A DNA stretch of 64,000 nt, taken from assembly GCA_964016885.1 (NCBI GenBank), contig OZ024750.1, positions 30,752,001-30,816,000 of the forward strand. Reading direction: 5' to 3'. A model generated the notes under the pieces. It saw only the letters and a program-made list of their open reading frames with translations. It was not told the origin of the DNA and searched no databases. Below, one piece after another: positions 4,513 to 64,000 of the stretch. The translations under genes and the position numbers were made by a program. Position 1 is the stretch's first letter; each line of letters starts with the position of its first letter. The DNA comes from Eledone cirrhosa (Eukaryota).

Positions 4513-4817
4513 TTATAAACAAAGGTTACATTCGCAGCTACACACGTCAGGGTAATACATCACTGTTTCATGTTGTTCAGCTCCACACAGAGCGATAACT
4601 TCTTTAACTTTGGATGTCCTACTCTGACAGCACTTACAGTGGTTGTCGAATATCTCATTGTAGCTATCGTATTTCTTCCTTGAGAGCAGCTTTGGCATAG
4701 AAATGCTACCACCACATTTACCAGAACAATATGATATTTTCACTTTTTCAACTGAACGGCAATTACTAGTTTTGTTTTCCAGAAACAGGAATTTTGACTT
4801 CAATGTACATTGTATTT
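4513..4817 (-). CDS. Terminal exon: C-terminal cystine knot (CTCK)
   Basis: ttcAG acceptor, phase 1. [36 protein letters not shown] matches the VWF/mucin CTCK pattern (CxGxC, CxCC, CxCxxC). Confidence 0.93.
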
Positions 4818-39875: not shown

Positions 39876-42800
39876 ACAGACAAAATAAATAGGAGATGGT
39901 TTTATAAACAGACTTACCATTATAGGTAGATAGTATTGTTGATAAAGTTTTACTTGTAGAACTTCCAACAGTAAACTGTGTACCGGTTGTTGCAGGCAGA
40001 CTAATAGTACTACTACCGGTATATGGTACGGTAGATGACATTGGTGAAAAACTAACAGTGGTGAATGGTACAGGAGATGACATTGGTGGAAAACTAACAG
40101 TGGTGAATGGTAGAGTAGATGACATTGGTGGAAAACTAAGAGTGGTGAATGGTAGTTTTGGTGTAGTAATGATAGGGGTAGATGGTATTTTAGTACTGAC
40201 TGGGGTAGATGGTATTTTAGTACTGACTGGGGTGGATGGTAGTGTTGGTGTAGTATTGACAGGGGTGGATGGTATTTTAGTAATAACAGGGGTGGATGGT
40301 ATTTTAGTAATAACAGGAGTAGATGGTATTTTAGTACTGACTAGGGTGGATGGTATTTTAGTACTGACTGGGGTGGATGGTAGCGTTGGTGTAGTAATGA
40401 CAGGGGTAGATGGTATTTTAGTACTGACTGGGGTGGATGGTATTTTGGTAATAACAGGGGTGGATGGTATTTTAGTACTGACAGGGGTAGATGGTAGCGT
40501 TGGTGTAGTAATAACAGGGGTGGATGGTATTTTAGTAATAACAGGGGAGGATGGTATTTTAGTACTGACTGGGGTGGATGGTAGTGTTGGTGTAGTAATG
40601 ACAGGGGTAGATGGTATTTTAGTACTGACTGGGGTGGATGGTATTTTGGTAATAACAGGGGTGGATGGTATTTTAGTACTGACAGGGGTAGATGGTAGCG
40701 TTGGTGTAGTAATAACAGGGGTGGATGGTATTTTAGTACTGACAGGGGTGGATGGTATTTTAGTAATAACAGGGGAGGATGGTATTTTAGTACTGACTGG
40801 GGTGGATGGTAGTGTTGGTGTAGTAATGACAGGGGTAGATGGTATTTTAGTACTGACAGGGGTAGATGGTATTTTGGTAATAACAGGGGTGGAAGGTATT
40901 TTAGTAATAACAGGGGTGGATGGTATTTTAGTAATAACAGGGGTGGATGGTATTTTAGTAATAACAGCAGTGGATGGTATTTTAGTACTGACAGGGGTAG
41001 ATGGTATTTTAGTACTGACAGGGGAGGATGGTATTTTAGTAATAACAGGGGTGGATGGTATTTTAGTAATAACAGCGGTGGATGGTATTTTAGTAATAAC
41101 AGGGGTGGATGGTATTTTAGTAATAGCAGGGGTGGATGGTATTTTAGTACTGACAGGGGTAGACGGTATTTTAGTTATAACAGCAGTGGATGGTATTTTA
41201 GTACTGACAGGGGTAGATGGTAGCGTTGGTGTAGTAATAACAGGGGTGGATGGTATTTTAGTAATAACAGGGGTGGAAGGTATTTTAGTAATAACAGGGG
41301 TGGATGGTATTTTGGTAATAACAGGGGTGGAAGGTATTTTAGTAATAACAGGGGTGGATGGTATTTTGGTAATAACAGGGGTGGAAGGTATTTTAGTAAT
41401 AACAGGGGTGGATGGTATTTTAGTAATAACAGGGGTGGATGGTATTTTAGTAATAACAGCAGTGGATGGTATTTTAGTACTGACAGGGGTAGATGGTATT
41501 TTAGTAATAACAGGGGAGGATGGTATTTTAGTAATAACAGGGGTGGATGGTATTTTAGTAATAACAGGGGTGGATGGTATTTTAGTAATAACAGGGGTGG
41601 ATGGTATTTTAGTAATAACAGGGGTGGATGGTATTTTAGTACTGACAGGGGTAGATGGTAGCGTTGGTGTAGTAATAACAGGGGTGGATGGTATTTTAGT
41701 ACTGACAGGGGTGGATGGTATTTTAGTAATAACAGGGGAGGATGGTATTTTAGTACTGACTGGGGTGGATGGTAGTGTTGGTGTAGTAATGACAGGGGTA
41801 GATGGTATTTTAGTACTGACAGGGGTGGATGGTAATTTAGTAATAACAGGGGTAGATGGCATTTTAGTAATAAAAGGGGTGGATGGTATTTTGGTAATAA
41901 CAGGGGAGGATGGTATTTTAGTACTGACTGGGGTGGATGGTAGTGTTGGTGTAGTAATGACAGGGGTAGATGGTATTTTAGTACTGACAGGGGTAGATGG
42001 TATTTTGGTAATAACAGGGGTGGAAGGTATTTTAGTAATAACAGGGGTGGATGGTATTTTAGTAATAACAGCAGTGGATGGTATTTTAGTACTGACAGGG
42101 GTAGATGGTATTTTAGTAATAACAGGGGAGGATGGTATTTTAGTAATAACAGGGGTGGATGGTATTTTAGTAATAACAGGGGTGGATGGTATTTTAGTAA
42201 TAACAGGGGTGGATGGTATTTTAGTAATAACAGGGGTGGATGGTATTTTAGTACTGACAGGGGTAGATGGTATTTTAGTTATAACAGCAGTGGATGGTAT
42301 TTTAGTACTGACAGTGGCAGATGGTATTTTAGTAATAACAGGGGTGGATGGTATTTTGGTAATAACAGGGGTGGATGGTATTTTGGTAATAACAGGGGTG
42401 GATGGTATTTTAGTAATAACAGGGGTGGATGGTATTTTAGTAATAACAGGGGTGGATGGTATTTTAGTAATAACAGGGGTGGATGGTATTTTAGTAATAA
42501 CAGGGGTAGATGGTATTTTAGTAATAACAGGGGTAGATGGTATTTTAGTAATAACAGCAGTGGATGGTATTTTAGTACTGACAGGGGCAGATGGTATTTT
42601 AGTAATAACAGGGGTGGATGGTATTTTGGTAATAACAGGGGTGGATGGTATTTTAGTAATAACAGGGGTGGATGGTATTTTAGTAATAACAGGGGTGGAT
42701 GGTATTTTGGTAATAACAGAGGTGGATGGTATTTTAGTACTGACAGGGGTAGATGGTATTTTAGTAATAACAGGGGTGGATGGTATTTTAGTAATAACAG

Positions 42801-45800
42801 CAGTGGATGGTATTTTAGTACTGACAGGGGTAGATGGTATTTTAGTAATAACAGGGGTGGATGGTATTTTAGTAATAACAGGGGTAGATGGTATTTTAGT
42901 AATAACAGCAGTGGATGGTATTTTAGTACTCACAGGGGTAGATGGTATTTTAGTAATAACAGGGGTGGATGGTATTTTAGTAATAACTGGGGTAGATGGT
43001 ATTTTAGTAATAACAGGGGTAGATGGTATTTTAGTAATAACAGGGGTAGATGGTATTTTAGTAATAACAGGGGAGGATGGTCTTTTAGTAATAACAGGGG
43101 AGGATGGTCTTTTAGTAATAACAGGGGTGGATGGTATTTTAGTACTGACTGGGGTGGATGGTATTTTGGTAATAACAGGGGAGGATGGTATTTTGGTAAT
43201 AACAGGGGTGGATGGTATTTTAGTAATGACAGGGGTGGATGGTATTTTAGTAATGACAGGGGTGGATGGTATTTTAGTAATAACAGCAGTGGATGGTACT
43301 TTAGTACTCACAGGGGTAGATGATATTTTAGTACTGACAGGGGTAGATGGTATTTTAGTACTGACAGGGGTAGATGGTATTTTAGTAATAACAGCAGTGG
43401 ATGGTATTTTAGTACTGACAGGGGTAGATGGTATTTTAGTAATAACAGCAGTGGATGGTATTTTAGTACTGACAGGGGTAGAAACGACAGGTGTAGATGG
43501 TATTTTAGTAATAACAGGTGTGGATGGTATTTTAGTAATAGCAGAGGTAGATGGTATTTTGATACTGATAGGGGTGGATGGTATTTTAGTAATAAGAGGG
43601 GTGGATCGTAGTGCTGGTGTAGTAATGACAGGGGTAGATTGTATTTCAGTACTGATAGGGGTAGCTGGTAGTGTAGGCTTAGTACTGACAGAGGTGGATG
43701 GTATTTTAGTAACGACAGGTGTAGATGGTATTTTAGTAACGACAGGTGTAGATGGTATTTTAGTACTGACAGGGGTAGATGGTATTTTAGTAATAACAGG
43801 GGTAGATGGTATTTTCGTACTGGCAGTGGTAAATGGTAGTTTACTACTGACAGGTGTAGATGGCAGTGATGATGTAGTACTTGAAGCGGTAGATGGCAGT
43901 GATGGCGTAGTTACTGCTGGTCTACTTGGTGCAGTTGTCGATGTTTTTGGTGCTCTACTAGATGCTGCAGTACTTGGTACAGTGTATGGTAACGTTGGTG
44001 ATGTACCTGGTATTGAGGATGGTAGTGTTGGTATATATCTTGAGGAACTTTCTGATGCAATGATTGGTGCACTTGCTGATGGAGGAATAGTACTGGCTAG
44101 AGTATATGTTGGCATCTTAGCTGCAGAAATAACAATGTGATATATATAATTATAATTGCTTCGTGCCATAACAAATTCTTCATTTGGATAATCATAAAAT
44201 GTATTTTGTTTTGTTGAAATTAATTATGTGGTTAGAATCTGCAACGGAAATATGGCATGGCATGGTCCTGTAACTCCCAAGGGAGTTGTAGGGGTTCTGT
44301 ATTGAAATATGGCATTTCTAGGGCTTTTTAGAACCTAGCAAAGCTCATCTCTTCTCCACAGTGTGAATAGAGAAGATTTCTTCCAGAGAAGGATAGAAAG
44401 TGAAAGAATTGAAATGAGAAAGAGATATAGAGGAAGAATCCACCCCTGTACTAGACTAGTACATTTTATCAACTTCATTGGGTGAAAGGCAAAGTTGACC
44501 TTACTTTCATATATATTGTTAAATCATAATACAGCCTGATAGTATTCATAAATGTTTTAATAAAGAATTTCTTTGTTTTAATAAAGAATTTCTTTGTTTT
44601 AACAAAGAATTTCTTGATATGAGAAATGACTTCAGGTAATGTCAATGTTTCTTTAAAAAAATTGAAATATTAACGTTTTCTAGGTATAACAATAACTGAT
44701 GGAATCAGTAGAATTACTAAAAGTTGTAATAGTTTTCTACTAAGCACTTTCTGTCAAAACATCAATGTAAACTTTTCATTACCAAATATTTAATAGAGAG
44801 ACACTGCTTAAAATTTTCATAAAAATTGTGAAAATAAAAGAAATTTCGATACATGAATACATGTCCTATTATGAAGCTGATATTTGGAAGAAAGAAGCTT
44901 ACAAAAACAAAAATATGAATAGATGAAAATTTCAGTTTTAAACAATTCAGAAAAAAAACTTTGAATCTTATAAACGATAAATGTTGAAGAGATTTGATGT
45001 CGAAATAATTTTAACTATTTCAGAAACATATCTACCAAATAAAATGTAGATAAATTAGAATTGATATGAATATGAATATAAAGCAATACGTATATATTCA
45101 AAGATTTATCTAAATTGATTCATGAGGAAAGGCATTTAACATAAAACTCACGTTGACTAGTTGTTGGTACACTTGATACAACTGCTGAAGTGGCTGGTGC
45201 CAGTGTTGTTGTAAGAGGATCTGAAGTTTAGGAAAGAAATCACAATAATCAAAATCTATGTGACTTTACAAATCAGTTGTAAATAAAGATGAGTTGCATC
45301 AGGATTAATAGAAATAAATAAATAGATTGGAATTATCACTTACGTTTACAGATTTTGGCAGACACAGATACGACCATATCTTCTGTGATATCATCAGCTT
45401 CAATTACAATCGTCACAGTTTCTTGACCATTACCACTTGGAATACCAACTGGTCTATCTGGGGTTGATGTCTGTAGAATGGATTTACATTTTTTATTAAT
45501 GATAAGATTAAAATAAACAGTGATCGTCAAAAAATATAGACAATGTCGAAATTCCATTAATGAATGAAATAGAACACTGTCTGAATTATATGTCCTTATA
45601 TTCTGTAAATTCTAGAATATCATTATATGAATTGAAATATTAATATAAAGGAAGATACATATGAAATAAGTAGAAAGAAATATGAAACTTGAATGAAAAA
45701 ATCACCATCAGATTACCTTGATTGTGTATTCTGTTGAAGGATTTGATAACAAAACAGTATATGATTTCACATTTTCATGGTCAACAAGGCTTATTGTTCC

Positions 45801-48800
45801 ACCGGCATTAAGCGTGGGACCAATTTGTAATGTGACAGTTCTTTTAGATTTAGCATTAGTTTTCCAGCCAACATTTGGTCTCACATCACTAGGTGATCCG
45901 ACATTAGGACTTAAGGTGATTGCTGTATCAGGGATGAAAGTTTCATCATCCATTGCTTCTGTTATCTCACAGAACACTGTTAAATAAAACAATTACATAT
46001 TATAAAGTGTCAAAATAAAATGATAATAGTACAAATGTTCTATATATGAAGGATAACATATGTAATAATTATTGCATTAATACTCACACTCAGTAGTTCT
46101 TTGGACAGTTGGAACAGCTGTCGAAGTTACAGGTGCTATTGTTGATGACACTGGTGCTATTGTTGATGACACAGGTTCTAGAATTTATAAAGAATATCTA
46201 CTTAGTGAATTGTTTTAGACAATTAAAGCAGATCTTTGCACCAGAATAATTGTAAAGAAAATAAAATGAAATATCCTAGATTTCATAGTGAATCTAATCT
46301 TTTAAATATTTGAAAATTAGAGCGTTCCACATATCCATAAGTATGTATTTGTAAATTAGAGCGTTCCACATATCCATGAATAAATCTATGTATTTATATG
46401 TTGATTTGTCTAGATGTATAAAAGGTACACAGCTCAATGTCAGTATTATGTTTTTCTTTCCATAAACATTATTGCTACTAAGAAATGTTTTAAGGGAGAT
46501 AAGAATAAATGAAGTAAACTAATTGTTTGATTCAATGTGATATTTATTTTGACTGATGGCTGATAAAAGTTCCAGAAAATTTGGAAGGAAATGTAATAAA
46601 GTAAAATAAAATCAATATGAATTAGATTTTTTACGAAGAATAAGCTGCTGGTAGAAAGCGATATCATGTAGAAACCACAGAAAATAGTGGAGATTCAAAT
46701 ATTTGTATTAATAGTTGAACATGACATTAAGTTTGAAAAATTATTATTGATACAATATTTAATGCCAGTAATAAACGTATGAATTACAATAGGAAAATTA
46801 TATATGAATGAAACAAATTTACAAATTTTTAAAGAACTCCCTTCAGATAGATATGTCTTTCAATTAAATATATAGTTTCCATTTATGTGTGATGTAGGAA
46901 TGAAGCACTTGCCTGATTAATTATACATATGAAATATACCAGCTTTTATGTAATTGTTAGATGTTAACTGGGATTGTTTCAAAATGAGTCCTTATAAAAG
47001 AACTGTAAATTTTAAAAACAAAACTAGAGATCCAAGTTGCAAATTAATGAAGGTTTATTGGAATTACCAAATATACAGCCATACATATATATTGAAAGAT
47101 TTATCTACATTGATTCATGAGGAAAGTCATTTAACATAAAACTCACGTTGACTAGTTGTTGGTACACTTGATACAACTGCTGAAGTGGCTGGTGCCAGTG
47201 TTGTTGTAAGAGGATCTGAAGTTTAGGAAAGAAATCACAATAATCAAAATCTATGTGACTTTACACATCAGTTGTAAATAAAGATGAGTTGCATCAGGAT
47301 TAATAGAAATAAATAAATAGATTGGAATTATCACTTACGTTTACAGATTTTGGCAGACACAGATACGACCATATCTTCTGTGATATCATCAGCTTCAATT
47401 ACAATCGTCACAGTTTCTTGACCATTACCACTTGGAATACCAACTGGTCTATCTGGGGTTGATGTCTGTAGAATGGATTTACATTTTTTATTAATGATAA
47501 GATTAAAATAAACAGTGATCGTCAAAAAATATAGACAATGTCGAAATTCCATTAATGAATGAAATAGAACACTGTCTGAATTATATGTCCTTATATTCTG
47601 TAAATTCTAGAATATCATTATATGAATTGAAATATTAATATAAAGGAAGATACATATGAAATAAGTAGAAAGAAATATGAAACTTGAATGAAAAAATCAC
47701 CATCAGATTACCTTGATTGTGTATTCTGTTGAAGGATTTGATAACAAAACAGTATATGATTTCACATTTTCATGGTCAACAAGGCTTATTGTTCCACCGG
47801 CATTAAGCGTGGGACCAATTTGTAATGTGACAGTTCTTTTAGATTTAGCATTAGTTTTCCAGCCAACATTTGGTCTCACATCACTAGGTGATCCGACATT
47901 AGGACTTAAGGTGATTGCTGTATCAGGGATGAAAGTTTCATCATCCATTGCTTCTGTTATCTCACAGAACACTGTTAAATAAAACAATTACATATTATAA
48001 AGTGTCAAAATAAAATGATAATAGTACAAATGTTCTATATATGAAGGATAACATATGTAATAATTATTGCATTAATACTCACACTCAGTAGTTCTTTGGA
48101 CAGTTGGAACAGCTGTCGAAGTTACAGGTGCTATTGTTGATGACACAGGTGCTATTGTTGATGACACAGGTTCTAGAATTTAGAAAGAATATCTACTTAG
48201 TGAATTGTTTTAGACAATTAAAGCAGATCTTTGCACCAGAATAATTGTAAAGAAAATAAAATGAAATATCCTAGATTTCATAGTGAATCTAATCTTTTAA
48301 ATATTTGAAAATTAGAGCGTTCCACATATCCATAAGTATATATTTGTAAATTAGAGCGTTCCACATATCCATGAATAAATCTATGTATTTATATGTTGAT
48401 TTGTCTAGATGTATAAAAGGTACACAGCTCAATGTCAGTATTATGTTTTTCTTTACATAAACATTATTGCTACTAAGAAATGTTTTAAGGGAGATAAGAA
48501 TAAATGAAGTAAACTAATTGTTTGATTCAATGTGATATTTATTTTGACTGATGGCTGATAAAAGTTCCAGAAAATTTGGAAGGAAATGTAATAAAGTAAA
48601 ATAAAATCAATATGAATTAGATTTTTTACGAAGAATAAGCTGCTGGTAGAAAGCGATATCATGTAGAAACCACAGAAAATAGTGGAGATTCAAATATTTG
48701 TATTAATAGTTGAACATGACATTAAGTTTGAAGAATTATTATTGATACAATATTTATAAACCACATTAATATAATGCCAGTAATAAACGAATGAATTACA

Positions 48801-51800
48801 ATAGGAAAATTATATATGAATGAGACAAATTTACAAATTTTTAAAGAACTCCCTTCAGATAGATATGTCTTTCAATTAAATATATAGTTTCCATTTATGT
48901 GTGATGTAGGAATGAAGCACTTGCCTGATTAATTATACATATGAAATATACCAGCTTTTATGTAATTGTTAGATGTTAACTGGGATTGTTTCAAAATGAG
49001 TCCTTATAAAAGAACTGTAAATTTTAAAAACAAAACTAGAGATCCAAGTTGCAAATTAATGAAGGTTTATTGGAATTACCAAATATACAGCCATACATAT
49101 ATATTGAAAGATTTATCTACATTGATTCATGAGGAAAGTCATTTAACATAAAACTCACGTTGACTAGTGGTTGGTACACTTGATACAACTGCTGAAGTGG
49201 CTGGTGCCAGTGTTGTTGTAAGAGGATCTGAAGTTTAGGAAAGAAATCACAATAATCAAAATCTATGTGACTTTACAAATCAGTTGTAAATAAAGATGAG
49301 TTGCATCAGGATTAATAGAAATAAATAAATAGATTGGAATTATCACTTACGTTTACAGATTTTGGCAGACACAGATACGACCATATCTTCTGTGATATCA
49401 TCAGCTTCAATTACAATCGTCACAGTTTCTTGACCATTACCACTTGGAATACCAACTGGTCTATCTGGGGTTGATGTCTGTAGAATGGATTTACATTTTT
49501 TATTAATGATAAGATTAAAATAAACAGTGATCGTCAAAAAATATAGACAATGTCGAAATTCCATTAATGAATGAAATAGAACACTGTCTGAATTATATGT
49601 CCTTATATTCTGTAAATTCTAGAATATCATTATATGAATTGAAATATTAATATAAAGGAAGATACATATGAAATAAGTAGAAAGAAATATGAAACTTGAA
49701 TGAAAAAATCACCATCAGATTACCTTGATTGTGTATTCTGTTGAAGGATTTGATAACAAAACAGTATATGATTTCACATTTTCATGGTCAACAAGGCTTA
49801 TTGTTCCACCGGCATTAAGCGTGGGACCAATTTGTAATGTGACAGTTCTTTTAGATTTAGCATTAGTTTTCCAGCCAACATTTGGTCTCACATCACTAGG
49901 TGATCCGACATTAGGACTTAAGGTGATTGCTGTATCAGGGATGAAAGTTTCATCATCCATTGCTTCTGTTATCTCACAGAACACTGTTAATTAAAACAAT
50001 TACATATTATAAAGTGTCAAAATAAAATGATAATAGTACAAATGTTCTATATATGAAGGATAACATATGTAATAATTATTGCATTAATACTCACACTCAG
50101 TAGTTCTTTGGACAGTTGGAACAGCTGTCGAAGTTACAGGTGCTATTGTTGATGACACAGGTGCTATTGTTGATGACACAGGTTCTAGAATTTAGAAAGA
50201 ATATCTACTTAGTGAATTGTTTTAGACAATTAAAGCAGATCTTTGCACCAGAATAATTGTAAAGAAAATAAAATGAAATATCCTAGATTTCATAGTGAAT
50301 CTAATCTTTTAAATATTTGAAAATTAGAGCGTTCCACATATCCATAAGTATGTATTTGTAAATTAGAGCGTTCCACATATCCATGAATAAATCTATGTAT
50401 TTATATGTTGATTTGTCTAGATGTATAAAAGGTACACAGCTCAATGTCAGTATTATGTTTTTCTTTCCATAAACATTATTGCTACTAAGAAATGTTTTAA
50501 GGGAGATAAGAATAAATGAAGTAAACTAATTGTTTGATTCAATGTGATATTTATTTTGACTGATGGCTGATAAAAGTTCCAGAAAATTTGGAAGGAAATG
50601 TAATAAAGTAAAATAAAATCAATATGAATTAGATTTTTTACGAAGAATAAGCTGCTGGTAGAAAGCGATATCATGTAGAAACCACAGAAAATAGTGGAGA
50701 TTCAAATATTTGTATTAATAGTTGAACATGACATTAAGTTTGAAAAATTATTATTGATACAATATTTAATGCCAGTAATAAACGTATGAATTACAATAGG
50801 AAAATTATATATGAATGAGACAAATTTACAAATTTTTAAAGAACTCCCTTCAGATAGATATGTCTTTCAATTAAATATATAGTTTCCATTTATGTGTGAT
50901 GTAGGAATGAAGCACTTGCCTGATTAATTATACATATGAAATATACCAGCTTTTATGTAATTGTTAGATGTTAACTGGGATTGTTTCAAAATGAGTCCTT
51001 ATAAAAGAACTGTAAATTTTAAAAACAAAACTAGAGATCCAAGTTGCAAATTAATGAAGGTTTATTGGAATTACCAAATATACAGCCATACATATATATT
51101 GAAAGATTTATCTACATTGATTCATGAGGAAAGTCATTTAACATAAAACTCACGTTGACTAGTTGTTGGTACACTTGATACAACTGCTGAAGTGGCTGGT
51201 GCCAGTGTTGTTGTAAGAGGATCTGAAGTTTAGGAAAGAAATCACAATAATCAAAATCTATGTGACTTTACAAATTAGTTGTAAATAAAGATGAGTTGCA
51301 TCAGGATTAATAGAAATAAATAAATAGATTGGAATTATCACTTACGTTTGCAGATTTTGGCAGACACAGATACGACCATATCTTCTGTGATATCATCAGC
51401 TTCAATTACAATCGTCACAGTTTCTTGACCATTACCACTTGGAATACCAACTGGTCTATCTGGGGTTGATGTCTGTAGAATGGATTTATATCTTTTATTA
51501 ATGATAAGATTAAAATAAACAGTGATCGTCAAAAAATATAGACAATGTCGAAATTCCATTAATGAATGAAATAGAACACTGTCTGAATTATATGTCCTTA
51601 TATTCTGTAAATTCTAGAATATCATTATATGAATTGAAATATTAATATAAAGGAAGATACATATGAAATAAGTAGAAAGAAATATGAAACTTGAATGAAA
51701 AAATCACCATCAGATTACCTTGATTGTGTATTCTGTTGAAGGATTTGATAACAAAACAGTATATGATTTCACATTTTCATGGTCAACAAGGCTTATTGTT

Positions 51801-54800
51801 CCACCGGCATTAAGCGTGGGACCAATTTGTAATGTGACAGTTCTTTTAGATTTAGCATTAGTTTTCCAGCCAACATTTGGTCTCACATCACTAGGTGATC
51901 CGACATTAGGACTTAAGGTGATTGCTGTATCAGGGATGAAAGTTTCATCATCCATTGCTTCTGTTATCTCACAGAACACTGTTAATTAAAACAATTACAT
52001 ATTATAAAGTGTCAAAATAAAATGATAATAGTACAAATGTTCTATATATGAAGGATAACATATGTAATAATTATTGCATTAATACTCACACTCAGTAGTT
52101 CTTTGGACAGTTGGAACAGCTGTCGAAGTTACAGGTGCTATTGTTGATGACACAGGTGCTATTGTTGATGACACAGGTTCTAGAATTTAGAAAGAATATC
52201 TACTTAGTGAATTGTTTTAGACAATTAAAGCAGATCTTTGCACCAGAATAATTGTAAAGAAAATAAAATGAAATATCCTAGATTTCATAGTGAATCTAAT
52301 CTTTTAAATATTTGAAAATTAGAGCGTTCCACATATCCATAAGTATGTATTTGTAAATTAGAGCGTTCCACATATCCATGAATAAATCTATGTATTTATA
52401 TGTTGATTTGTCTAGATGTATAAAAGGTACACAGCTCAATGTCAGTATTATGTTTTTCTTTACATAAACATTATTGCTACTAAGAAATGTTTTAAGGGAG
52501 ATAAGAATAAATGAAGTAAACTAATTGTTTGATTCAATGTGATATTTATTTTGACTGATGGCTGATAAAAGTTCCAGAAAATTTGGAAGGAAATGTAATA
52601 AAGTAAAATAAAATCAATATGAATTAGATTTTTTACGAAGAATAAGCTGCTGGTAGAAAGCGATATCATGTAGAAACCACAGAAAATAGTGGAGATTCAA
52701 ATATTTGTATTAATAGTTGAACATGACATTAAGTTTGAAGAATTATTATTGATACAATATTTATAAACCACATTAATATAATGCCAGTAATAAACGAATG
52801 AATTACAATAGGAAAATTATATATGAATGAGACAAATTTACAAATTTTTAAAGAACTCCCTTCAGATAGATATATCTTTCAATTAAATATATAGTTTCCA
52901 TTTATGTGTGATGTAGGAATGAAGCACTTGCCTGATTAATTATACATTTGAAATATACCAGCTTTTATGTAATTGTTAGATGTTAACTGGGATTGTTTCA
53001 AAATGAGTCCTTATAAAAGAAGTGTAAATTTTAAAAACAAAACTAGAGATCCAAGTTGCAAATTAATGAAGGTTTATTGGAATTACCAAATATACAGCCA
53101 TACATATATATTGAAAGATTTATCTACATTGATTCATGAGGAAAGTCATTTAACATAAAACTCACGTTGACTAGTTGTTGGTACACTTGATACAACTGCT
53201 GAAGTGGCTGGTGCCAGTGTTGTTGTAAGAGGATCTGAAGTTTAGGAAAGAAATCACAATAATCAAAATCTATGTGACTTTACAAATCAGTTGTAAATAA
53301 AGATGAGTTGCATCAGGATTAATAGAAATAAATAAATAGATTGGAATTATCACTTACGTTTACAGATTTTGGCAGACACAGATACGACCATATCTTCTGT
53401 GATATCATCAGCTTCAATTACAATCGTCACAGTTTCTTGACCATTACCACTTGGAATACCAACTGGTCTATCTGGGGTTGATGTCTGTAGAATGGATTTA
53501 CATTTTTTATTAATGATAAGATTAAAATAAACAGTGATCGTCAAAAAATATAGACAATGTCGAAATTCCATTAATGAATGAAATAGAACACTGTCTGAAT
53601 TATATGTCCTTATATTCTGTAAATTCTAGAATATCATTATATGAATTGAAATATTAATATAAAGGAAGATACATATGAAATAAGTAGAAAGAAATATGAA
53701 ACTTGAATGAAAAAATCACCATCAGATTACCTTGATTGTGTATTCTGTTGAAGGATTTGATAACAAAACAGTATATGATTTCACATTTTCATGGTCAACA
53801 AGGCTTATTGTTCCACCGGCATTAAGCGTGGGACCAATTTGTAATGTGACAGTTCTTTTAGATTTAGCATTAGTTTTCCAGCCAACATTTGGTCTCACAT
53901 CACTAGGTGATCCGACATTAGGACTTAAGGTGATTGCTGTATCAGGGATGAAAGTTTCATCATCCATTGCTTCTGTTATCTCACAGAACACTGTTAAATA
54001 AAACAATTACATATTATAAAGTGTCAAAATAAAATGATAATAGTACAAATGTTCTATATATGAAGGATAACATATGTAATAATTATTGCATTAATACTCA
54101 CACTCAGTAGTTCTTTGGACAGTTGGAACAGCTGTCGAAGTTACAGGTGCTTTTGTTGATGACACAGGTGCTATTGTTGATGACACAGGTTCTAGAATTT
54201 AGAAAGAATATCTACTTAGTGAATTGTTTTAGACAATTAAAGCAGATCTTTGCACCAGAATAATTGTAAAGAAAATAAAATGAAATATCCTAGATTTCAT
54301 AGTGAATCTAATCTTTTAAATATTTGAAAATTAGAGCGTTCCACATATCCATAAGTATGTATTTGTAAATTAGAGCGTTCCACATATCCATGAATAAATC
54401 TATGTATTTATATGTTGATTTGTCTAGATGTATAAAAGGTACACAGCTCAATGTCAGTATTATGTTTTTCTTTACATAAACATTATTGCTACTAAGAAAT
54501 GTTTTAAGGGAGATAAGAATAAATGAAGTAAACTAATTGTTTGATTCAATGTGATATTTATTTTGACTGATGGCTGATAAAAGTTCCAGAAAATTTGGAA
54601 GGAAATGTAATAAAGTAAAATGAAATCAATATGAATTAGATTTTTTACGAAGAATAAACTGCTGGTAGAAAGCGATATCATGTAGAAACCACAGAAAATA
54701 GTGGAGATTCAAATATTTGTATTAATAGTTGAACATGACATTAAGTTTGAAGAATTATTATTGATACAATATTTATAAACCACATTAATATAATGCCAGT

Positions 54801-57800
54801 AATAAACGAATGAATTACAATAGGAAAATTATATATGAATGAGACAAATTTACAAATTTTTAAAGAACTCCCTTCAGATAGATATGTCTTTCAATTAAAT
54901 ATATAGTTTCCATTTATGTGTGATGTAGGAATGAAGCACTTGCCTGATTAATTAAACATATGAAATATACCAGCTTTTATGTAATTGTTAGATGTTAACT
55001 GGGATTGTTTCAAAATGAGTCCTTATAAAAGAAGTGTAAATTTTAAAAACAAAACTAGAGATCCAAGTTGCAAATTAATGAAGGTTTATTGGAATTACCA
55101 AATATACAGCCATACATATATATTGAAAGATTTATCTACATTGATTCATGAGGAAAGTCATTTAACATAAAACTCACGTTGACTAGTTGTTGGTACACTT
55201 GATACAACTGCTGAAGTGGCTGGTGCCAGTGTTGTTGTAAGAGGATCTGAAGTTTAGGAAAGGAATCACAATAATCAAAATCTATGTGACTTTACAAATC
55301 AGTTGTAAATAAAGATGAGTTGCATCAGGATTAATAGAAATAAATAAATAGTTTGGAATTATCACTTACGTTTACAGATTTTGGCAGACACAGATACGAC
55401 CAAATCTTCTGTGATATCATCAGCTTCAATTACAATCGTCACAGTTTCTTGACCATTACCACTTGGAATACCAACTGGTCTATCTGGGGTTGATGTCTGT
55501 AGAATGGATTTACATTTTTTATTAATGATAAGATTAAAATAAACAGTGATCGTCAAAAAAATAGACAATGTCGAAATTCCATTAATGAATGAAATAGAAC
55601 ACTGTCTGAATTATATGTCCTTATATTCTGTAAATTCTAGAATATCATTATATGAATTGAAATATTAATATAAAGGAAGATACATATGAAATAAGTAGAA
55701 AGAAATATGAAACTTGAATGAAAAAATCACCATCAGATTACCTTGATTGTGTATTCTGTTGAAGGATTTGATAACAAAACAGTATATGATTTCACATTTT
55801 CATGGTCAACAAGGCTTATTGTTCCACCGGCATTAAGCGTGGGACCAATTTGTAAAGTGACAGTTCTTTTAGATTTAGCATTAGTTTTCCAGCCAACATT
55901 TGGTCTCACATCACTAGGTGATCCGACATTAGGACTTAAGGTGATTGCTGTATCAGGGATGAAAGTTTCATCATCCATTGCTTCTGTTATCTCACAGAAC
56001 ACTGTTAAATAAAACAATTACATATTATAAAGTGTCAAAATAAAATGATAATAGTACAAATGTTCTATATATGAAGGATAACATATGTAATAATTATTGC
56101 ATTAATACTCACACTCAGTAGTTCTTTGGACAGTTGGAACAGCTGTCGAAGTTACAGGTGCTATTGTTGATGACACAGGTGCTATTGTTGATGACACAGG
56201 TTCTAGAATTTAGAAAGAATATCTACTTAGTGAATTGTTTTAGACAATTAAAGCAGATCTTTGCACCAGAATAATTGTAAAGAAAATAAAATGAAATATC
56301 CTAGATTTCATAGTGAATCTAATCTTTTAAATATTTGAAAATTAGAGCGTTCCACATATCCATAAGTATGTATTTGTAAATTAGAGCGTTCCACATATCC
56401 ATGAATAAATCTATGTATTTATATGTTGATTTGTCTAGATGTATAAAAGGTACACAGCTCAATGTCAGTATTATGTTTTTCTTTCCATAAACATTATTGC
56501 TACTAAGAAATGTTTTAAGGGAGATAAGAATAAATGAAGTAAACTAATTGTTTGATTCAATGTGATATTTATTTTGACTGATGGCTGATAAAAGTTCCAG
56601 AAAATTTGGAAGGAAATGTAATAAAGTAAAATAAAATCAATATGAATTAGATTTTTTACGAAGAATAAGCTGCTGGTAGAAAGCGATATCATGTAGAAAC
56701 CACAGAAAATAGTGGAGATTCAAATATTTGTATTAATAGTTGAACATGACATTAAGTTTGAAGAATTATTATTGATACAATATTTATAAACCACATTAAT
56801 ATAATGCCAGTAATAAACGAATGAATTACAATAGGAAAATTATATATGAATGAGACAAATTTACAAATTTTTAAAGAACTCCCTTCAGATAGATATATCT
56901 TTCAATTAAATATATAGTTTCCATTTATGTGTGATGTAGGAATGAAGCACATGCCTGATTAATTATACATATGAAATATACCAGCTTTTATGTAATTGTT
57001 AGATGTTAACTGGGATTGTTTCAAAATGAGTCCTTATAAAAGAAGTGTAAATTTTAAAAACAAAACTAGAGATCCAAGTTGCAAATTAATGAAGGTTTAT
57101 TGGAATTACCAAATATACAGCCATACATATATATTGAAAGATTTATCTACATTGATTCATGAGGAAAGTCATTTAACATAAAACTCACGTTGACTAGTTG
57201 TTGGTACACTTGATACAACTGCTGAAGTGGCTGGTGCCAGTGTTGTTGTAAGAGGATCTGAAGTTTAGGAAAGAAATCACAATAATCAAAATCTATGTGA
57301 CTTTACAAATCAGTTGTAAATAAAGATGAGTTGCATCAGGATTAATAGAAATAAATAAATAGATTGGAATTATCACTTACGTTTACAGATTTTGGCAGAC
57401 ACAGATACGACCATATCTTCTGTGATATCATCAGCTTCAATTACAATCGTCACAGTTTCTTGACCATTACCACTTGGAATACCAACTGGGCTATCTGGGG
57501 TTGATGTCTGTAGAATGGATTTACATTTTTTATTAATGATAAGATTAAAATAAACAGTGATCGTCAAAAAATATAGACAATGTCGAAATTCCATTAATGA
57601 ATGAAATAGAACACTGTCTGAATTATATGTCCTTATATTCTGTAAATTCTAGAATATCATTATATGAATTGAAATATTAATATAAAGGAAGATACATATG
57701 AAATAAGTAGAAAGAAATATGAAACTTGAATGAAAAAATCACCATCAGATTACCTTGATTGTGTATTCTGTTGAAGGATTTGATAACAAAACAGTATATG

Positions 57801-60800
57801 ATTTCACATTTTCATGGTCAACAAGGCTTATTGTTCCACCGGCATTAAGCGTGGGACCAATTTGTAATGTGACAGTTCTTTTAGATTTAGCATTAGTTTT
57901 CCAGCCAACATTTGGTCTCACATCACTAGGTGATCCGACATTAGGACTTAAGGTGATTGCTGTATCAGGGATGAAAGTTTCATCATCCATTGCTTCTGTT
58001 ATCTCACAGAACACTGTTAAATAAAACAATTACATATTATAAAGTGTCAAAATAAAATGATAATAGTACAAATGTTCTATATATGAAGGATAACATATGT
58101 AATAATTATTGCATTAATACTCACACTCAGTAGTTCTTTGGACAGTTGGAACAGCTGTCGAAGTTACAGGTGCTATTGTTGATGACACAGGTGCTATTGT
58201 TGATGACACAGGTTCTAGAATTTAGAAAGAATATCTACTTAGTGAATTGTTTTAGACAATTAAAGCAGATCTTTGCACCAGAATAATTGTAAAGAAAATA
58301 AAATGAAATATCCTAGATTTCATAGTGAATCTAATCTTTTAAATATTTGAAAATTAGAGCGTTCCACATATCCATAAGTATGTATTTGTAAATTAGAGCG
58401 TTCCACATATCCATGAATAAATCTATGTATTTATATGTTGATTTGTCTAGATGTATAAAAGGTACACAGCTCAATGTCAGTATTATGTTTTTCTTTACAT
58501 AAACATTATTGCTACTAAGAAATGTTTTAAGGGAGATAAGAATAAATGAAGTAAACTAATTGTTTGATTCAATGTGATATTTATTTTGACTGAAGGCTGA
58601 TAAAAGTTCCAGAAAATTTGGAAGGAAATGTAATAAAGTAAAATGAAATCAATATGAATTAGATTTTTTACGAAGAATAAACTGCTGGTAGAAAGCGATA
58701 TCATGTAGAAACCACAGAAAATAGTGGAGATTCAAATATTTGTATTAATAGTTGAACATGACATTAAGTTTGAAGAATTATTATTGATACAATATTTATA
58801 AACCACATTAATATAATGCCAGTAATAAACGAATGAATTACAATAGGAAAATTATATATGAATGAGACAAATTTACAAATTTTTAAAGAACTCCCTTCAG
58901 ATAGATATGTCTTTCAATTAAATATATAGTTTCCATTTATGTGTGATGTAGGAATGAAGCACTTGCCTGATTAATTATACATATGAAATATACCAGCTTT
59001 TATGTAATTGTTAGATGTTAACTGGGATTGTTTCAAAATGAGTCCTTATAAAAGAAGTGTAAATTTTAAAAACAAAACTAGAGATCCAAGTTGCAAATTA
59101 ATGAAGGCTTATTTGAATTACCAAATATACAGCCATACATATATATTGAAAGATTTATCTACATTGATTCATGAGGAAAGTCATTTAACATAAAACTCAC
59201 GTTGACTAGTTGTTGGTACACTTGATACAACTGCTGAAGTGGCTGGTGCCAGTGTTGTTGTAAGAGGATCTGAAGTTTAGGAAAGAAATCACAATAATCA
59301 AAATCTATGTGACTTTACAAATCAGTTGTAAATAAAGATGAGTTGCATCAGGATTAATAGAAATAAATAAATAGATTGGAATTATCACTTACGTTTACAG
59401 ATTTTGGCAGACACAGATACGACCATATCTTCTGTGATATCATCAGCTTCAATTACAATCGTCACAGTTTCTTGACCATTACCACTTGGAATACCAACTG
59501 GTCTATCTGGGGTTGATGTCTGTAGAATGGATTTACATTTTTTATTAATGATAAGATTAAAATAAACAGTGATCGTCAAAAAATATAGACAATGTCGAAA
59601 TTCCATTAATGAATGAAATAGAACACTGTCTGAATTATATGTCCTTATATTCTGTAAATTCTAGAATATCATTATATGAATTGAAATATTAATATAAAGG
59701 AAGATACATATGAAATAAGTAGAAAGAAATATGAAACTTGAATGAAAAAATCACCATCAGATTACCTTGATTGTGTATTCTGTTGAAGGATTTGATAACA
59801 AAACAGTATATGATTTCACATTTTCATGGTCAACAAGGCTTATTGTTCCACCGGCATTAAGCGTGGCACCAATTTGTAAAGTGACAGTTCTTTTAGATTT
59901 AGCATTAGTTTTCCAGCCAACATTTGGTCTCACATCACTAGGTGATCCGACATTAGGACTTAAGGTGATTGCTGTATCAGGGATGAAAGTTTCATCATCC
60001 ATTGCTTCTGTTATCTCACAGAACACTGTTAATTAAAACAATTACATATTATAAAGTGTCAAAATAAAATGATAATAGTACAAATGTTCTATATATGAAG
60101 GATAACATATGTAATAATTATTGCATTAATACTCACACTCAGTAGTTCTTTGGACAGTTGGAACAGCTGTCGAAGTTACAGGTGCTATTGTTGATGACAC
60201 AGGTGCTATTGTTGATGACACAGGTTCTAGAATTTAGAAAGAATATCTACTTAGTGAATTGTTTTAGACAATTAAAGCAGATCTTTGCACCAGAATAATT
60301 GTAAAGAAAATAAAATGAAATATCCTAGATTTCATAGTGAATCTAATCTTTTAAATATTTGAAAATTAGAGCGTTCCACATATCCATAAGTATGTATTTG
60401 TAAATTAGAGCGTTCCACATATCCATGAATAAATCTATGTATTTATATGTTGATTTGTCTAGATGTATAAAAGGTACACAGCTCAATGTCAGTATTATGT
60501 TTTTCTTTACATAAACATTATTGCTACTAAGAAATGTTTTAAGGGAGATAAGAATAAATGAAGTAAACTAATTGTTTGATTCAATGTGATATTTATTTTG
60601 ACTGATGGCTGATAAAAGTTCCAGAAAATTTGGAAGGAAATGTAATAAAGTAAAATAAAATCAATATGAATTAGATTTTTTACGAAGAATAAGCTGCTGG
60701 TAGAAAGCGATATCATGTAGAAACCACAGAAAATAGTGGAGATTCAAATATTTGTATTAATAGTTGAACATGACATTAAGTTTGAAGAATTATTATTGAT

Positions 60801-63800
60801 ACAATATTTATAAACCACATTAATATAATGCCAGTAATAAACGAATGAATTACAATAGGAAAATTATATATGAATGAGACAAATTTACAAATTTTTAAAG
60901 AACTCCCTTCAGATAGATATGTCTTTCAATTAAATATATAGTTTCCATTTATGTGTGATGTAGGAATGAAGCACTTGCCTGATTCATTATACATATGAAA
61001 TATACCAGCTTTTATGTAATTGTTAGATGTTAACTGGGATTGTTTCAAAATGAGTCCTTATAAAAGAAGTGTAAATTTTAAAAACAAAACTAGAGATCCA
61101 AGTTGCAAATTAATGAAGGTTTATTGGAATTACCAAATATACAGCCATACATATATATTGAAAGATTTATCTACATTGATTCATGAGGAAAGTCATTTAA
61201 CATAAAACTCACGTTGACTAGTTGTTGGTACACTTGATACAACTGCTGAAGTGGCTGGTGCCAGTGTTGTTGTAAGAGGATCTGAAGTTTAGGAAAGGAA
61301 TCACAATAATCAAAATCTATGTGACTTTACAAATCAGTTGTAAATAAAGATGAGTTGCATCAGGATTAATAGAAATAAATAAATAGATTGGAATTATCAC
61401 TTACGTTTACAGATTTTGGCAGACACAGATACGACCATATCTTCTGTGATATCATCAGCTTCAATTACAATCGTCACAGTTTCTTGACCATTACCACTTG
61501 GAATACCAACTGGTCTATCTGGGGTTGATGTCTGTAGAATGGATTTACATTTTTTATTAATGATAAGATTAAAATAAACAGTGATCGTCAAAAAATATAG
61601 ACAATGTCGAAATTCCATTAATGAATGAAATAGAACACTGTCTGAATTATATGTCCTTATATTCTGTAAATTCTAGAATATCATTATATGAATTGAAATA
61701 TTAATATAAAGGAAGATACATATGAAATAAGTAGAAAGAAATATGAAACTTGAATGAAAAAATCACCATCAGATTACCTTGATTGTGTATTCTGTTGAAG
61801 GATTTGATAACAAAACAGTATATGATTTCACATTTTCATGGTCAACAAGGCTTATTGTTCCACCGGCATTAAGCGTGGGACCAATTTGTAATGTGACAGT
61901 TCTTTTAGATTTAGCATTAGTTTTCCAGCCAACATTTGGTCTCACATCACTAGGTGATCCGACATTAGGACTTAAGGTGATTGCTGTATTAGGGATGAAA
62001 GTTTCATCATCCATTGCTTCTGTTATCTCACAGAACACTGTTAAATAAAACAATTACATATTATAAAGTGTCAAAATAAAATGATAATAGTACAAATGTT
62101 CTATATATGAAGGATAACATATGTAATAATTATTGCATTAATACTCACACTCAGTAGTTCTTTGGACAGTTGGAACAGCTGTCGAAGTTACAGGTGCTAT
62201 TGTTGATGACACTGGTGCTATTGTTGATGACACAGGTTCTAGAATTTAGAAAGAATATCTACTTAGTGAATTGTTTTAGACAATTAAAGCAGATCTTTGC
62301 ACCAGAATAATTGTAAAGAAAATAAAATGAAATATCCTAGATTTCATAGTGAATCTAATCTTTTAAATATTTGAAAATTAGAGCGTTCCACATATCCATA
62401 AGTATGTATTTGTAAATTAGAGCGTTCCACATATCCATGAATAAATCTATGTATTTATATGTTGATTTGTCTAGATGTATAAAAGGTACACAGCTCAATG
62501 TCAGTATTATGTTTTTCTTTCCATAAACATTATTGCTACTAAGAAATGTTTTAAGGGAGATAAGAATAAATGAAGTAAACTAATTGTTTGATTCAATGTG
62601 ATATTTATTTTGACTGATGGCTGATAAAAGTTCCAGAAAATTTGGAAGGAAATGTAATAAAGTAAAATAAAATCAATATGAATTAGATTTTTTACGAAGA
62701 ATAAGCTGCTGGTAGAAAGCGATATTATGTAGAAACCACAGAAAATAGTGGAGATTCAAATATTTGTATTAATAGTTGAACATGACATTAAGTTTGAAGA
62801 ATTATTATTGATACAATATTTATAAACCACATTAATATAATGCCAGTAATAAACGAATGATTTACAATAGGAAAATTATATATGAATGAGACAAATTTAC
62901 AAATTTTTAAAGAACTCCCTTCAGATAGATATGTCTTTCAATTAAATATATAGTTTCCATTTATGTGTGATGTAGGAATGAAGCACTTGCCTGATTAATT
63001 ATACATATGAAATATACCAGCTTTTATGTAATTGTTAGATGTTAACTGGGATTGTTTCAAAATGAGTCCTTATAAAAGAACTGTAAATTTTAAAAACAAA
63101 ACTAGAGATCCAAGTTGCAAATTAATGAAGGTTTATTGGAATTACCAAATATACAGCCATACATATATATTGAAAGATTTATCTACATTGATTCATGTGG
63201 AAAGTCATTTAACATAAAACTCACGTTGACTAGTTGTTGGTACACTTGATACAACTGCTGAAGTGGCTGGTGCCAGTGTTGTTGTAAGAGGATCTGAAGT
63301 TTAGGAAAGAAATCACAATAATCAAAATCTATGTGACTTTACAAATCAGTTGTAAATAAAGATGAGTTGCATCAGGATTAATAGAAATAAATAAATAGAT
63401 TGGAATTATCACTTACGTTTACAGATTTTGGCAGACACAGATACGACCATATCTTCTGTGATATCATCAGCTTCAATTACAATCGTCACAGTTTCTTGAC
63501 CATTACCACTTGGAATACCAACTGGTCTATCTGGGGTTGATGTCTGTAGAATGGATTTACATTTTTTATTAATGATAAGATTAAAATAAACAGTGATCGT
63601 CAAAAAATATAGACAATGTCGAAATTCCATTAATGAATGAAATAGAACACTGTCTGAATTATATGTCCTTATATTCTGTAAATTCTAGAATATCATTATA
63701 TGAATTGAAATATTAATATAAAGGAAGATACATATGAAATAAGTAGAAAGAAATATGAAACTTGAATGAAAAAATCACCATCAGATTACCTTGATTGTGT

Positions 63801-64000: not shown

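Follow-up and report, generated by a model that had tools for sequence, protein, structure and literature searches.

What kind of gene carries a run of near-identical 2-kb units, each with its own introns, and what could its repeated product do? This question is raised by a 64,000-nt stretch of Eledone cirrhosa DNA (contig OZ024750.1, positions 30,752,001 to 30,816,000; hereafter the window), in which a preliminary description had proposed at least 9.5 four-exon units of about 2 kb encoding a beads-on-a-string protein. The array is real, and its extent had been understated. Indeed, once the neighbouring stretches of the contig were added, we counted 55 complete four-exon units over 115 kb on the minus strand, from window position 45,090 to about position 159,790 when the numbering of the window is carried on (about C10:30,911,790). 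The window holds the 3′ end of the array (45,090-64,000, minus strand), with nine complete units (47-55), exons C and D of unit 46 and the exon B of this unit truncated at the window edge; the rest of the array lies beyond it.

As initially proposed, each unit comprises four exons of 90, 260, 127 and 69 nt; each exon is flanked by AG and GT, and all are read here on the minus strand. Exon A (90 nt, phase 1-1) encodes a Ser/Thr/Pro linker with an internal 21-nt repeat; it lies at 46,088-46,177 in the last unit and at 48,083-48,172, 50,095-50,184, 52,090-52,179, 54,102-54,191, 56,113-56,202, 58,125-58,214, 60,137-60,226 and 62,149-62,238 in the others. Exon B (260 nt, phase 1-0) encodes the first two thirds of a bead with a predicted discoidin fold and is found at 45,717-45,976, with further copies at 47,712-47,971, 49,724-49,983, 51,719-51,978, 53,731-53,990, 55,742-56,001, 57,754-58,013, 59,766-60,025, 61,778-62,037 and, cut, from 63,790 to the window end. 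Exon C (127 nt, phase 0-1; 45,344-45,470 in the last unit) encodes the bead end with its closing Cys, and its other copies start at 47,339, 49,351, 51,346, 53,358, 55,370, 57,381, 59,393, 61,405 and 63,417. Finally, exon D (69 nt, phase 1-1; 45,152-45,220) encodes a second Ser/Thr/Pro linker, with other copies starting at 47,147, 49,159, 51,154, 53,166, 55,178, 57,189, 59,201, 61,213 and 63,225. The four-exon cassette thus stands, but its 2-kb length is not fixed: exon A measures 90 nt in 47 of the 55 units, the other eight having 111, 132 or 174 nt (in-frame 21-nt steps), the D-A intron varies from 947 to 1,276 nt, and a private 2.3-kb insertion with a reverse-transcriptase ORF (LINE-type) sits in a single B-C intron. 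With a single exception, the array introns range from 111 to 1,276 nt.

The array reads as coding sequence throughout. All 219 internal introns are of the GT-AG type, with splice donors and acceptors near-invariant across units, and the 220 array exons, among which no frameshifting indel was found, join into 30,492 nt (10,163 codons) without a stop in the phase-1 frame; the two other frames contain 570 and 1,151 stops. The junction of the last exon D with the 4,203-nt PTS exon (44,120-39,918) is also in frame, and between the pre-array linker and the TSP1 region the open chain comprises 235 exons (12,144 aa), again with no stop. The proposal of an intron-bearing coding array that would splice in frame into the PTS exon is thus supported by the sequence over all 55 units, as is the beads-on-a-string layout, in which a 128-aa two-Cys bead alternates with a 53-54-aa linker (42% Ser/Thr and 13% P across the array linkers). 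Given the very young age of the units (0.6% divergence), the open frame is nonetheless weak proof of selection.

We also compared the units with each other. They are 99.4% identical, and pairwise alignment gave a mean divergence of 0.45% in exons and 0.67% in introns, in line with the initial observation that introns are about as identical between units as exons are. A multi-exon, kilobase-sized unit kept in frame and homogenised together with its introns corresponds to an intron-bearing coding macrosatellite. Concerted evolution, which had been inferred beforehand, is borne out by 177 incompatible pairs among 1,378 pairs of informative sites (PHI-like p=0.004) and by block duplications of three and four units; a Mantel correlation was also found among array units (rho 0.32, p=0.0005). 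Several units show no substitution differences (28=31, 29=32, 34=38, 35=39=42 and 36=40), and unit 55, which has no D-A intron, looks artificially close to every unit in this comparison. Indels in exons are restricted to the 21-nt steps of exon A; introns show ten distinct gap patterns in addition to the LINE-type insertion. Within the array, pN/pS is 0.39 (16 variants over 405 nonsynonymous sites and 14 over 138 synonymous sites; binomial p=0.009), a count that takes in exon A with its internal repeat collapsed; the bead alone has 12 nonsynonymous and 9 synonymous variants. Segregating sites do not differ significantly between nonsynonymous positions and introns (Fisher p=0.11), synonymous sites are somewhat more variable than introns (p=0.07), and dN/dS between the array bead and the terminal (56th) bead is high (0.64).

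From its flanking exons, the host gene is likely a SCO-spondin-like gel-forming mucin, with the order VWD-C8-TIL three times, LDLa, array, PTS exon, one diverged bead, TSP1/TIL/VWC and cystine knot. The exons 5′ of the array are colinear with residues 14-1409 of P0001 (three VWD, three C8 and four TIL by Pfam), and Pfam on single exons recovered three VWD, three C8 (two under the cut-off) and four TIL. They include an ATG followed by a hydrophobic N-terminus matching the Octopus protein start, and one LDLa exon follows the third VWD unit. At the D3 motif, GGDCECLC lines up with the GGDCECFC shared by MUC2 and MUC5AC (E ~2e-9), the middle Cys being the inter-chain one. Three N-terminal VWD-C8-TIL units, by which gel-forming mucins are recognised (Lang 2016), are accompanied by a PTS domain made of a 1,400-aa exon and the array linkers, and by a cystine knot indicated by 12 Cys in the last exon and a weak Pfam Cys_knot match (E=0.0035, 18.1 bits for a curated cut-off of 24).

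On the minus strand, the PTS exon (39,918-44,120, phase 1-1; P 20%, T 22%, S 16%, together 58%) carries a 27-nt repeat and is followed by exons B′ (36,497-36,756) and C′ (31,503-31,629) of the diverged 56th bead, which as a whole is 65% identical in amino acids to the array bead. Then come two putative, duplicated 48-nt Thr/Pro linker exons with weak GTTGGT donors (28,685-28,638 and 27,185-27,138), a conserved post-array exon present at six loci in the genome (25,486-25,315), a short Cys-rich exon (25,201-25,155), two TSP1 exons (24,726-24,568 and 24,160-23,987), a TIL exon (22,604-22,358), a short Cys exon (21,294-21,248) and a split TSP1-like pair (20,562-20,487 and 18,593-18,447), one of which was scanned with no Pfam match. 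An expected phase 2-1 exon was searched for between 18,447 and 13,363 and not found. Three further TSP1 exons (13,363-13,193, 11,149-11,000 and 9,510-9,358), a TIL exon with a GC donor (8,221-8,016), a VWC exon (7,418-7,314) and a short exon (5,773-5,713) precede the last exon (4,513-4,817), which encodes the C-terminal cystine-knot-like domain and ends in a stop codon. Downstream of the array there are thus five exons with a TSP1 Pfam match, two TIL and one VWC; vertebrate SCO-spondin has more of these repeats. The gene, one of six paralogous loci in the genome, is filed by its sequence as SCO-spondin-like only and not as a SCO-spondin orthologue. If fully spliced, it is predicted to yield an mRNA of about 42 kb and a very large secreted protein of about 14,000 aa.

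The bead, spanning exons B and C, has one Cys near each end (positions 2 and 127 of 128) and is acidic (17 D/E versus 10 K/R). Pfam gave no match for the bead exons of the window, nor any meaningful family for 26 aligned relatives (F5_F8_type_C matched by 0/26 alignment members at E<=1), and a genome search with PF00754 returned two matches, neither at bead-array loci; with no profile match, the bead is not filed as a member of F5_F8_type_C (PF00754). No longer protein was found by a word search with exon B (E<=0.001), no match by a PDB sequence search with the Octopus bead protein P0007, and no useful lead in ESM Atlas with exon B alone; the whole Octopus bead gave there an F5_F8_type_C lead at 0.82-0.83, below 0.9. 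Designed-repeat PDB matches of alignment A1 were discarded as spurious. The folded sequence was the Octopus bead (AlphaFold model of P0007 residues 67-196), 58% identical to the window bead. This model matched neuropilin-1 b2 (Z 11.2, rmsd 3.0, 124 aligned residues) and discoidin I and DDR1 (Z 10.7), with the non-lectin relatives HERC2 DOC (10.8) and IFT25 (10.7) within 1 Z, and the top Foldseek rows include neuropilin, CBM32 and factor VIII C2 (E 5e-4 to 1e-3). About 120 residues align with the top structural matches at 11-17% sequence identity. The bead is thus predicted, from this model, to be a discoidin/galactose-binding-like beta-sandwich with a terminal Cys pair. Since it is acidic and shorter than the matched C2/b domains (128 versus ~155 aa), no ligand site stands out, and similarity of fold does not by itself establish a function. 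The best-conserved residues (I85, R98, W103 and V135 in P0007 numbering) are presumably structural, as part of the discoidin core motif. The AlphaFold model of P0037, a C5-type bead, was poor (mean pLDDT 42.9), and a predicted self-association complex, run without alignment, scored 0.00 and counts neither way.

Argonauta and Octopus provide the nearest named proteins, and the 5′ exons match both colinearly, with 91% identity to A. hians GAB1608825.1 over one VWD exon. In O. bimaculoides, the SCO-spondin-like NCBI model XP_052821913.1 has two beads directly after LDLa, with B-, C- and D-like sequence following one another uninterrupted in each; the model ends after them, and more beads lie on a separate 4,621-bp contig. 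The Argonauta record is partial and stops shortly after LDLa. That the records of the relatives end at or in the array suggests that collapse may hide such arrays elsewhere, as anticipated. Among 28 matches, P0019, P0025 and P0034-P0038 were kept as relatives; P0026, P0028, P0030, P0031 and P0033 are unrelated proteins, matched by chance through their repeats, and were set aside.

Within the same genome, the C5 paralogue has 22 beads, arranged in 5,777-bp two-bead units (99.4-99.8% identical), and the C2 paralogue 46 beads, whose 46 B and 46 C matches are all free of stops, with sub-blocks that diverge to 68-71% amino acid identity; both arrays are preceded, on their own strand, by a VWD D3 exon. 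Beads are 27-44% identical between loci. Trees were built from de-duplicated rows (20 of 46, without the two P0004 beads) and from 13 hand-picked rows, with C26 and the last C2 blocks absent from both; in the 13-row tree, supported groups were obtained for the C5 beads and for the C2 beads, and C10 and Octopus beads are not separated. Judging from these sequences, the arrays of the two paralogues were amplified and homogenised separately from the window array. Neither these arrays nor the gene family and the bead fold had been named in the preliminary description. Two further paralogues have no bead in 80 kb each and contain single Pro/Thr/Ser-rich ORFs of 6,102 and 4,510 aa; another has one bead within 50 kb.

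The explanation that we favour, and regard as reasonably probable, is a real 55-copy intron-bearing array in a SCO-spondin-like mucin gene, the predicted product of which runs to about 10,000 residues, with discoidin-fold beads set on linkers that are likely O-glycosylated, and likely supplies a secreted gel with numerous weak sites for binding or cross-linking. The protein would polymerise end to end via D3 and cystine-knot disulfides, like MUC2, MUC5 and VWF, and the beads would take the role of the interspersed CysD domains of vertebrate mucins. Unequal crossing-over and gene conversion may add, remove and homogenise whole units with the frame kept, since every module appears to start and end in intron phase 1, and the phase-symmetric cassette would have been amplified separately in two paralogues. 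More tentatively, and with some doubt, we envisage that giant polymeric mucins (~14,000 aa) form a hidden family in octopods, in which an unannotated, Pfam-invisible discoidin-fold module on this cassette was amplified on three separate occasions, giving homogenised coding macrosatellites of 56, 46 and 22 copies. Cross-linking of the gel, adhesion or the binding of microbes would then be tuned through a polymorphic number of beads, and earlier cephalopod annotations would have cut these genes short.

Other readings have to be weighed. The possibility that the assembler multiplied a few units, raised in the preliminary description itself, is by now largely refuted and extremely improbable. Units are near-identical, and the available reads come from one sample, maybe the assembly's own. 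However, contigs of three public runs (one sample) loop back over 1,995 nt with head-to-tail units, at depths of 460-623 versus 5.6-10.3 on the adjoining flank contig, contig depth not being equivalent to copy number; only 12 of 1,485 unit pairs lack a substitution difference, unit variants are arranged in shared blocks, and the 2.3-kb insertion is private to one unit. It is likewise very unlikely that the array reflects a recent selfish or neutral amplification in a silent or decaying gene, too young for stops. The 0.6% divergence and the non-significant nonsynonymous-versus-intron test are compatible with it; on the other hand, the exon chains on either side of the array keep an open frame and follow the Argonauta and Octopus proteins in colinear order, 220 exons have escaped any frameshifting indel, and the C2 sub-blocks have remained free of stops despite their divergence.

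Two alternatives accept an expressed gene or a kept frame and bear on the product. Beads could be folded but inert spacers that lengthen the polymer, with copy number drifting by unequal crossing-over and selection acting on the frame only. We find this unlikely, although it has points in its favour: sister paralogues use giant PTS ORFs in place of beads, a third has a single bead, beads evolve fast (27-44% between loci; dN/dS 0.64) and their best-conserved residues presumably serve the fold. Against it, a folded two-Cys domain, and not linkers alone, was amplified at three separate loci, and pN/pS within the array is below 1. The array could also be a pool of skippable cassettes giving transcripts with variable, usually fewer beads, the 55-bead chain being rare. 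Indeed, with all modules in phase 1-1 and near-identical splice sites, an exon D can be spliced in frame to the exon A of any subsequent unit, or directly to the PTS exon, and the full mRNA would be very long. The introns are nevertheless short, one excepted, and their canonical sites strong, and LPA isoform size follows KIV-2 copy number, which implies that such units are read through (accessible text of PMC12776774); extensive skipping is thus quite unlikely.

With respect to known systems, the gene family and the repeat type are each on record, as F5/8C domains in lophotrochozoan mucins and as LPA KIV-2, and we therefore do not consider the locus a new kind of system. As far as the accessible text of the sources goes, invertebrate SCO-spondin-like mucins (PMC4948705; limpet P-vulgata_3 and 6, PMC7333891) share VWD-C8-TIL three times and LDLa with the host gene, and F5_F8 domains are characteristic of lophotrochozoan mucin-like proteins (Lang 2016, PMC4948705). 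A central discoidin-type domain with PTS, then TSP1/TIL/VWC and a cystine knot, are also shared. The host gene differs by 56 beads against two in the Octopus model, by beads invisible to Pfam F5_F8_type_C, and by the fourth VWD, none being found 3′ of the PTS exon. The likeness to discoidin/F5-8C, galactose-binding-like domains (neuropilin b, factor V/VIII C2, DDR, discoidin I, CBM32) resides in the predicted beta-sandwich (Z 10-11) and terminal Cys; the bead is 11-17% identical to them, about 25 residues shorter and without a profile match. The CysD domains of MUC2, MUC5AC and MUC5B are likewise small disulfide-closed domains set along Ser/Thr/Pro segments between D3 and cystine knot (accessible text of PMC4948705), and the D3 GGDCECxC motif is common to MUC2/MUC5AC and the host gene. 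In contrast to CysD, the bead has a predicted discoidin fold, no Mucin2_WxxW Pfam match, two exons and 55 near-identical copies. Mammalian CysD/PTS regions sit in one large exon.

The closest repeat, LPA KIV-2, has a kilobase-sized folded-domain unit that contains introns, repeated in frame at very high identity. Here, the unit is of 2 kb and four exons with a nested 21-nt coding repeat, its 55 copies (known from one sample) outnumber the 1-40 reported for KIV-2, the product is a polymeric mucin, and three paralogues were amplified separately. Literature searches, with subscription journals mostly outside their reach, returned no description of this scale, of a Pfam-invisible bead or of three parallel arrays; figure S4 of Lang 2016 may show related architectures. 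The bead would define a domain family missed by Pfam, and a cassette homogenised separately in three paralogues offers a natural replicate for the concerted evolution of protein domains, reported to be rare (PMC5100051). The array also suggests a reason for the truncated cephalopod SCO-spondin-like records, which is relevant to mucus and adhesive proteomics using those databases. According to the accessible text of the two studies, SCO-spondin-like proteins were detected in the skin mucus of octopus (PMC11431876) and in the pedal mucus of limpet (PMC7333891).

The four-exon coding tandem array proposed in the preliminary description was confirmed. On the minus strand of the window (G000:C10:30,752,001-30,816,000), nine complete units and a fragment of a tenth occupy the stretch from 45,090 up to its end, and the exons A, B, C and D (90, 260, 127 and 69 nt) are each bounded by AG and GT in the window. 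Once the adjoining 200 kb of the genome assembly (G000; 3.0 Gb in 1,796 contigs) are added, the array comprises 55 units and ends at about 159,790 (window numbering carried on beyond 64,000, higher numbers being upstream), beyond which sits one diverged orphan D exon. The initial count of at least 9.5 units holds for the window, the full array being larger. GT-AG borders were found at 219/219 internal array introns, and the joined exons (30,492 nt) translate into 10,163 aa, the expected frame being free of stops while the remaining frames contain 570 and 1,151. The 90-nt exon A was retrieved in 47 of the 55 units; in the remainder, it measures 111, 132 or 174 nt, the differences being without exception 21-nt steps.

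Could so homogeneous an array (mean unit-to-unit identity 99.39%, minimum 98.46%) be an assembly artefact derived from one or two units? We consider this extremely improbable. The units are mostly distinguishable, with only 12 of 1,485 pairs lacking any substitution difference, their variants are clustered in blocks common to several units, and a 2.3-kb insertion containing a reverse-transcriptase ORF (RVT_1, E 5e-32) is private to unit 31. This insertion lies in the B-C intron (stretch L004:527-2527, G000:C10 about 30,846,200-30,848,600; ORF of 666 codons) and, since it is absent from the otherwise identical twin unit 28, it appears to be a very recent retrotransposon-type event. Three public runs made on one sample, possibly the assembly's own, also yield contigs that argue against an artefact: these contain a head-to-tail join from 47,127 back to 45,133 (1,995 nt), and their depth is 460-623 on units versus 5.6-10.3 for the contig of the flank (44,000-44,284), which is not a copy number but is consistent with tens of copies and not one or two.

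The concerted evolution initially suggested, with introns homogenised together with exons, is in agreement with our measurements: units diverge by 0.45% across their exons and by 0.67% across their introns, and duplicated blocks of three and four units are present. Among 53 informative sites, 177 of 1,378 site pairs are incompatible; as compatibility is higher for nearby pairs than after shuffling (PHI-like p=0.004), recombination or conversion among units is indicated. Unit distance also rises with positional separation (Mantel rho 0.32, p=0.0005), and units 5-21 form one subfamily. Evidence for selection on the units appears modest. While pN/pS among units is 0.39 (p=0.009), nonsynonymous and intron sites do not differ significantly among units (p=0.11), and the array bead (exons B+C) has a dN/dS of 0.64 against the diverged terminal bead. 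Gap patterns number ten in introns, whereas exons B, C and D are free of them. Concerted evolution of domain repeats was described as an exception (PMC5100051); for LPA KIV-2, a 5.6-kb unit in 1-40 copies is reported (PMC11462820, PMC12776774). We found no description of a 55-unit bead array in the literature searched, most subscription journals being outside its coverage.

The array belongs to a SCO-spondin-like gene. One VWD exon upstream of it is 91% identical to a SCO-spondin-like protein of Argonauta hians, and the upstream exons are colinear with this protein and with O. bimaculoides XP_052821913.1, these matches placing the hydrophobic start at 219,671 and an LDLa exon at 164,534 (both in continued coordinates). 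On these matches, the source animal is probably an octopod. Pfam matches VWD, C8 and TIL 5′ of the array, and TSP1, TIL, VWC and a weak cystine knot 3′ of it. In D3, the motif GGDCECLC can be aligned to MUC2 and MUC5AC, and the genome search, a lower bound, gave no VWD match downstream of the Pro/Thr/Ser-rich (PTS) region. A chain of 235 exons, including the pre-array linker, D′, 220 array exons, a 4,203-nt PTS exon and a diverged 56th bead, encodes 12,144 aa without a stop; a 7-exon tail encodes 382 aa with the knot at its end. The small exon linking chain and tail was looked for and not found. With about 1,400 N-terminal residues added, the full protein would reach an estimated length of about 14,000 aa. 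The TIL exon 8221-8016 is probably followed by a GC-AG intron, because its donor at 8016 (AG|GCAAGT) alone, among the joins found, reaches the VWC exon in frame. In the same gene, another small phase 1-1 exon, a 48-nt Thr/Pro linker, has been copied by a 426-bp duplication (98% identical, 26976-27399 and 28476-28901), and the B′-C′ intron of the 56th bead contains a minisatellite with a 39-nt period, repeated about 63 times (31661-34064).

The bead is 128 aa long with cysteines at positions 2 and 127, and the linker (D+A) is 53-54 aa long with 42% Ser/Thr. Pfam gave no match to the bead, and its membership of F5_F8_type_C was rejected on this ground. HMMER returned 28 matches among 1.84 billion representatives, five of which were discarded as chance. 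In the O. bimaculoides model, two beads, 58-59% identical to the array bead, stand right behind LDLa; both comprise B-, C- and D-like sequence without a break, and an A-like segment is absent. A contig of 4,621 bp has a partial model with more Octopus beads, while the record from Argonauta stops just past LDLa. For the Octopus bead P0007, AlphaFold gave a model (blocks of pLDDT 79-96 between residues 71 and 190) that matches neuropilin-1 b2 (Z 11.2, rmsd 3.0, 124 aligned), HERC2 DOC (Z 10.8), discoidin I, DDR1 and IFT25 (Z 10.7) and factor VIII C2 (Z 10.6), so that a discoidin/galactose-binding-like fold is predicted; Foldseek agrees weakly with discoidin-type matches. Six distant relatives (P0019, P0025, P0034, P0035, P0036 and P0038) have several tandem diverged beads, some behind TIL/VWC modules. 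The bead family, which has no Pfam model, extends past these mucins. According to Lang et al. (2016, PMC4948705), the mucin-like proteins of invertebrates resemble SCO-spondins most closely, and those of lophotrochozoans characteristically bear F5_F8 domains. Mucus from the skin of O. vulgaris (PMC11431876) and from the foot of limpets (pedal mucus, PMC7333891) is reported to contain SCO-spondin-like proteins.

Altogether, the earlier observation is upheld and enlarged, and its interpretation is supported in part. Anatomy, frame, flanking domains and recombination are observed in the sequence. Beyond them, we propose, as a reasonably probable reading, that phase-1 ends permit gain, loss and homogenisation of whole units while the reading frame is kept, that the protein would polymerise via D3 and the knot, that linkers and PTS would be O-glycosylated, and that 55 identical beads would provide avid, weak binding or cross-linking, a role likened to that of CysD in vertebrate mucins. 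The beads might instead be inert spacers, which we judge unlikely; variable skipping of cassettes seems less likely still, and a young, silent amplification would be very unlikely.

The proposed multivalent bead protein has parallels in the genome: a genome-wide bead search gave 124 matches at four loci, each with a VWD D3 exon upstream on the same strand. The C5 paralogue (G000:C5:67,470,001-67,570,000; L021-L030) has 22 beads, mostly in a two-bead unit of 5,777 bp (99.4-99.8% identical), then a PTS ORF of 1,756 aa. The C2 paralogue (G000:C2:401,490,001-401,780,000; L031-L039, L041-L060) has 46 beads in several homogenised sub-blocks, without stops in its 46 B and 46 C matches; the single unit analysed over its whole length shows the same two-exon bead layout and two short linker exons, and the region holds one 200-N gap. 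At the C26 locus, the 50 kb inspected contained a single bead. Bead identity between loci is 27-44%. In a tree of 13 hand-picked beads (C26 and the last C2 blocks excluded), C5 beads cluster with another Octopus protein (support 99/100) and C2 beads together (100/100), whereas the C10 and Octopus P0004/P0007 beads fall into no supported group. Six paralogous loci share a conserved post-array exon. Two of these sister mucins lacked beads in the 80 kb inspected and have, in their place, single-frame Pro/Thr/Ser-rich ORFs of 6,102 aa (G000:C10:30,533,128-30,551,433; L061-L063) and 4,510 aa (G000:C26:13,791,228-13,804,757; L070-L071). Finally, at G000:C2:167,389,000-167,495,000, a pair of VWD exons is repeated four times, about 33-36 kb apart and with near-equal scores, which suggests another large intron-bearing coding tandem repeat.
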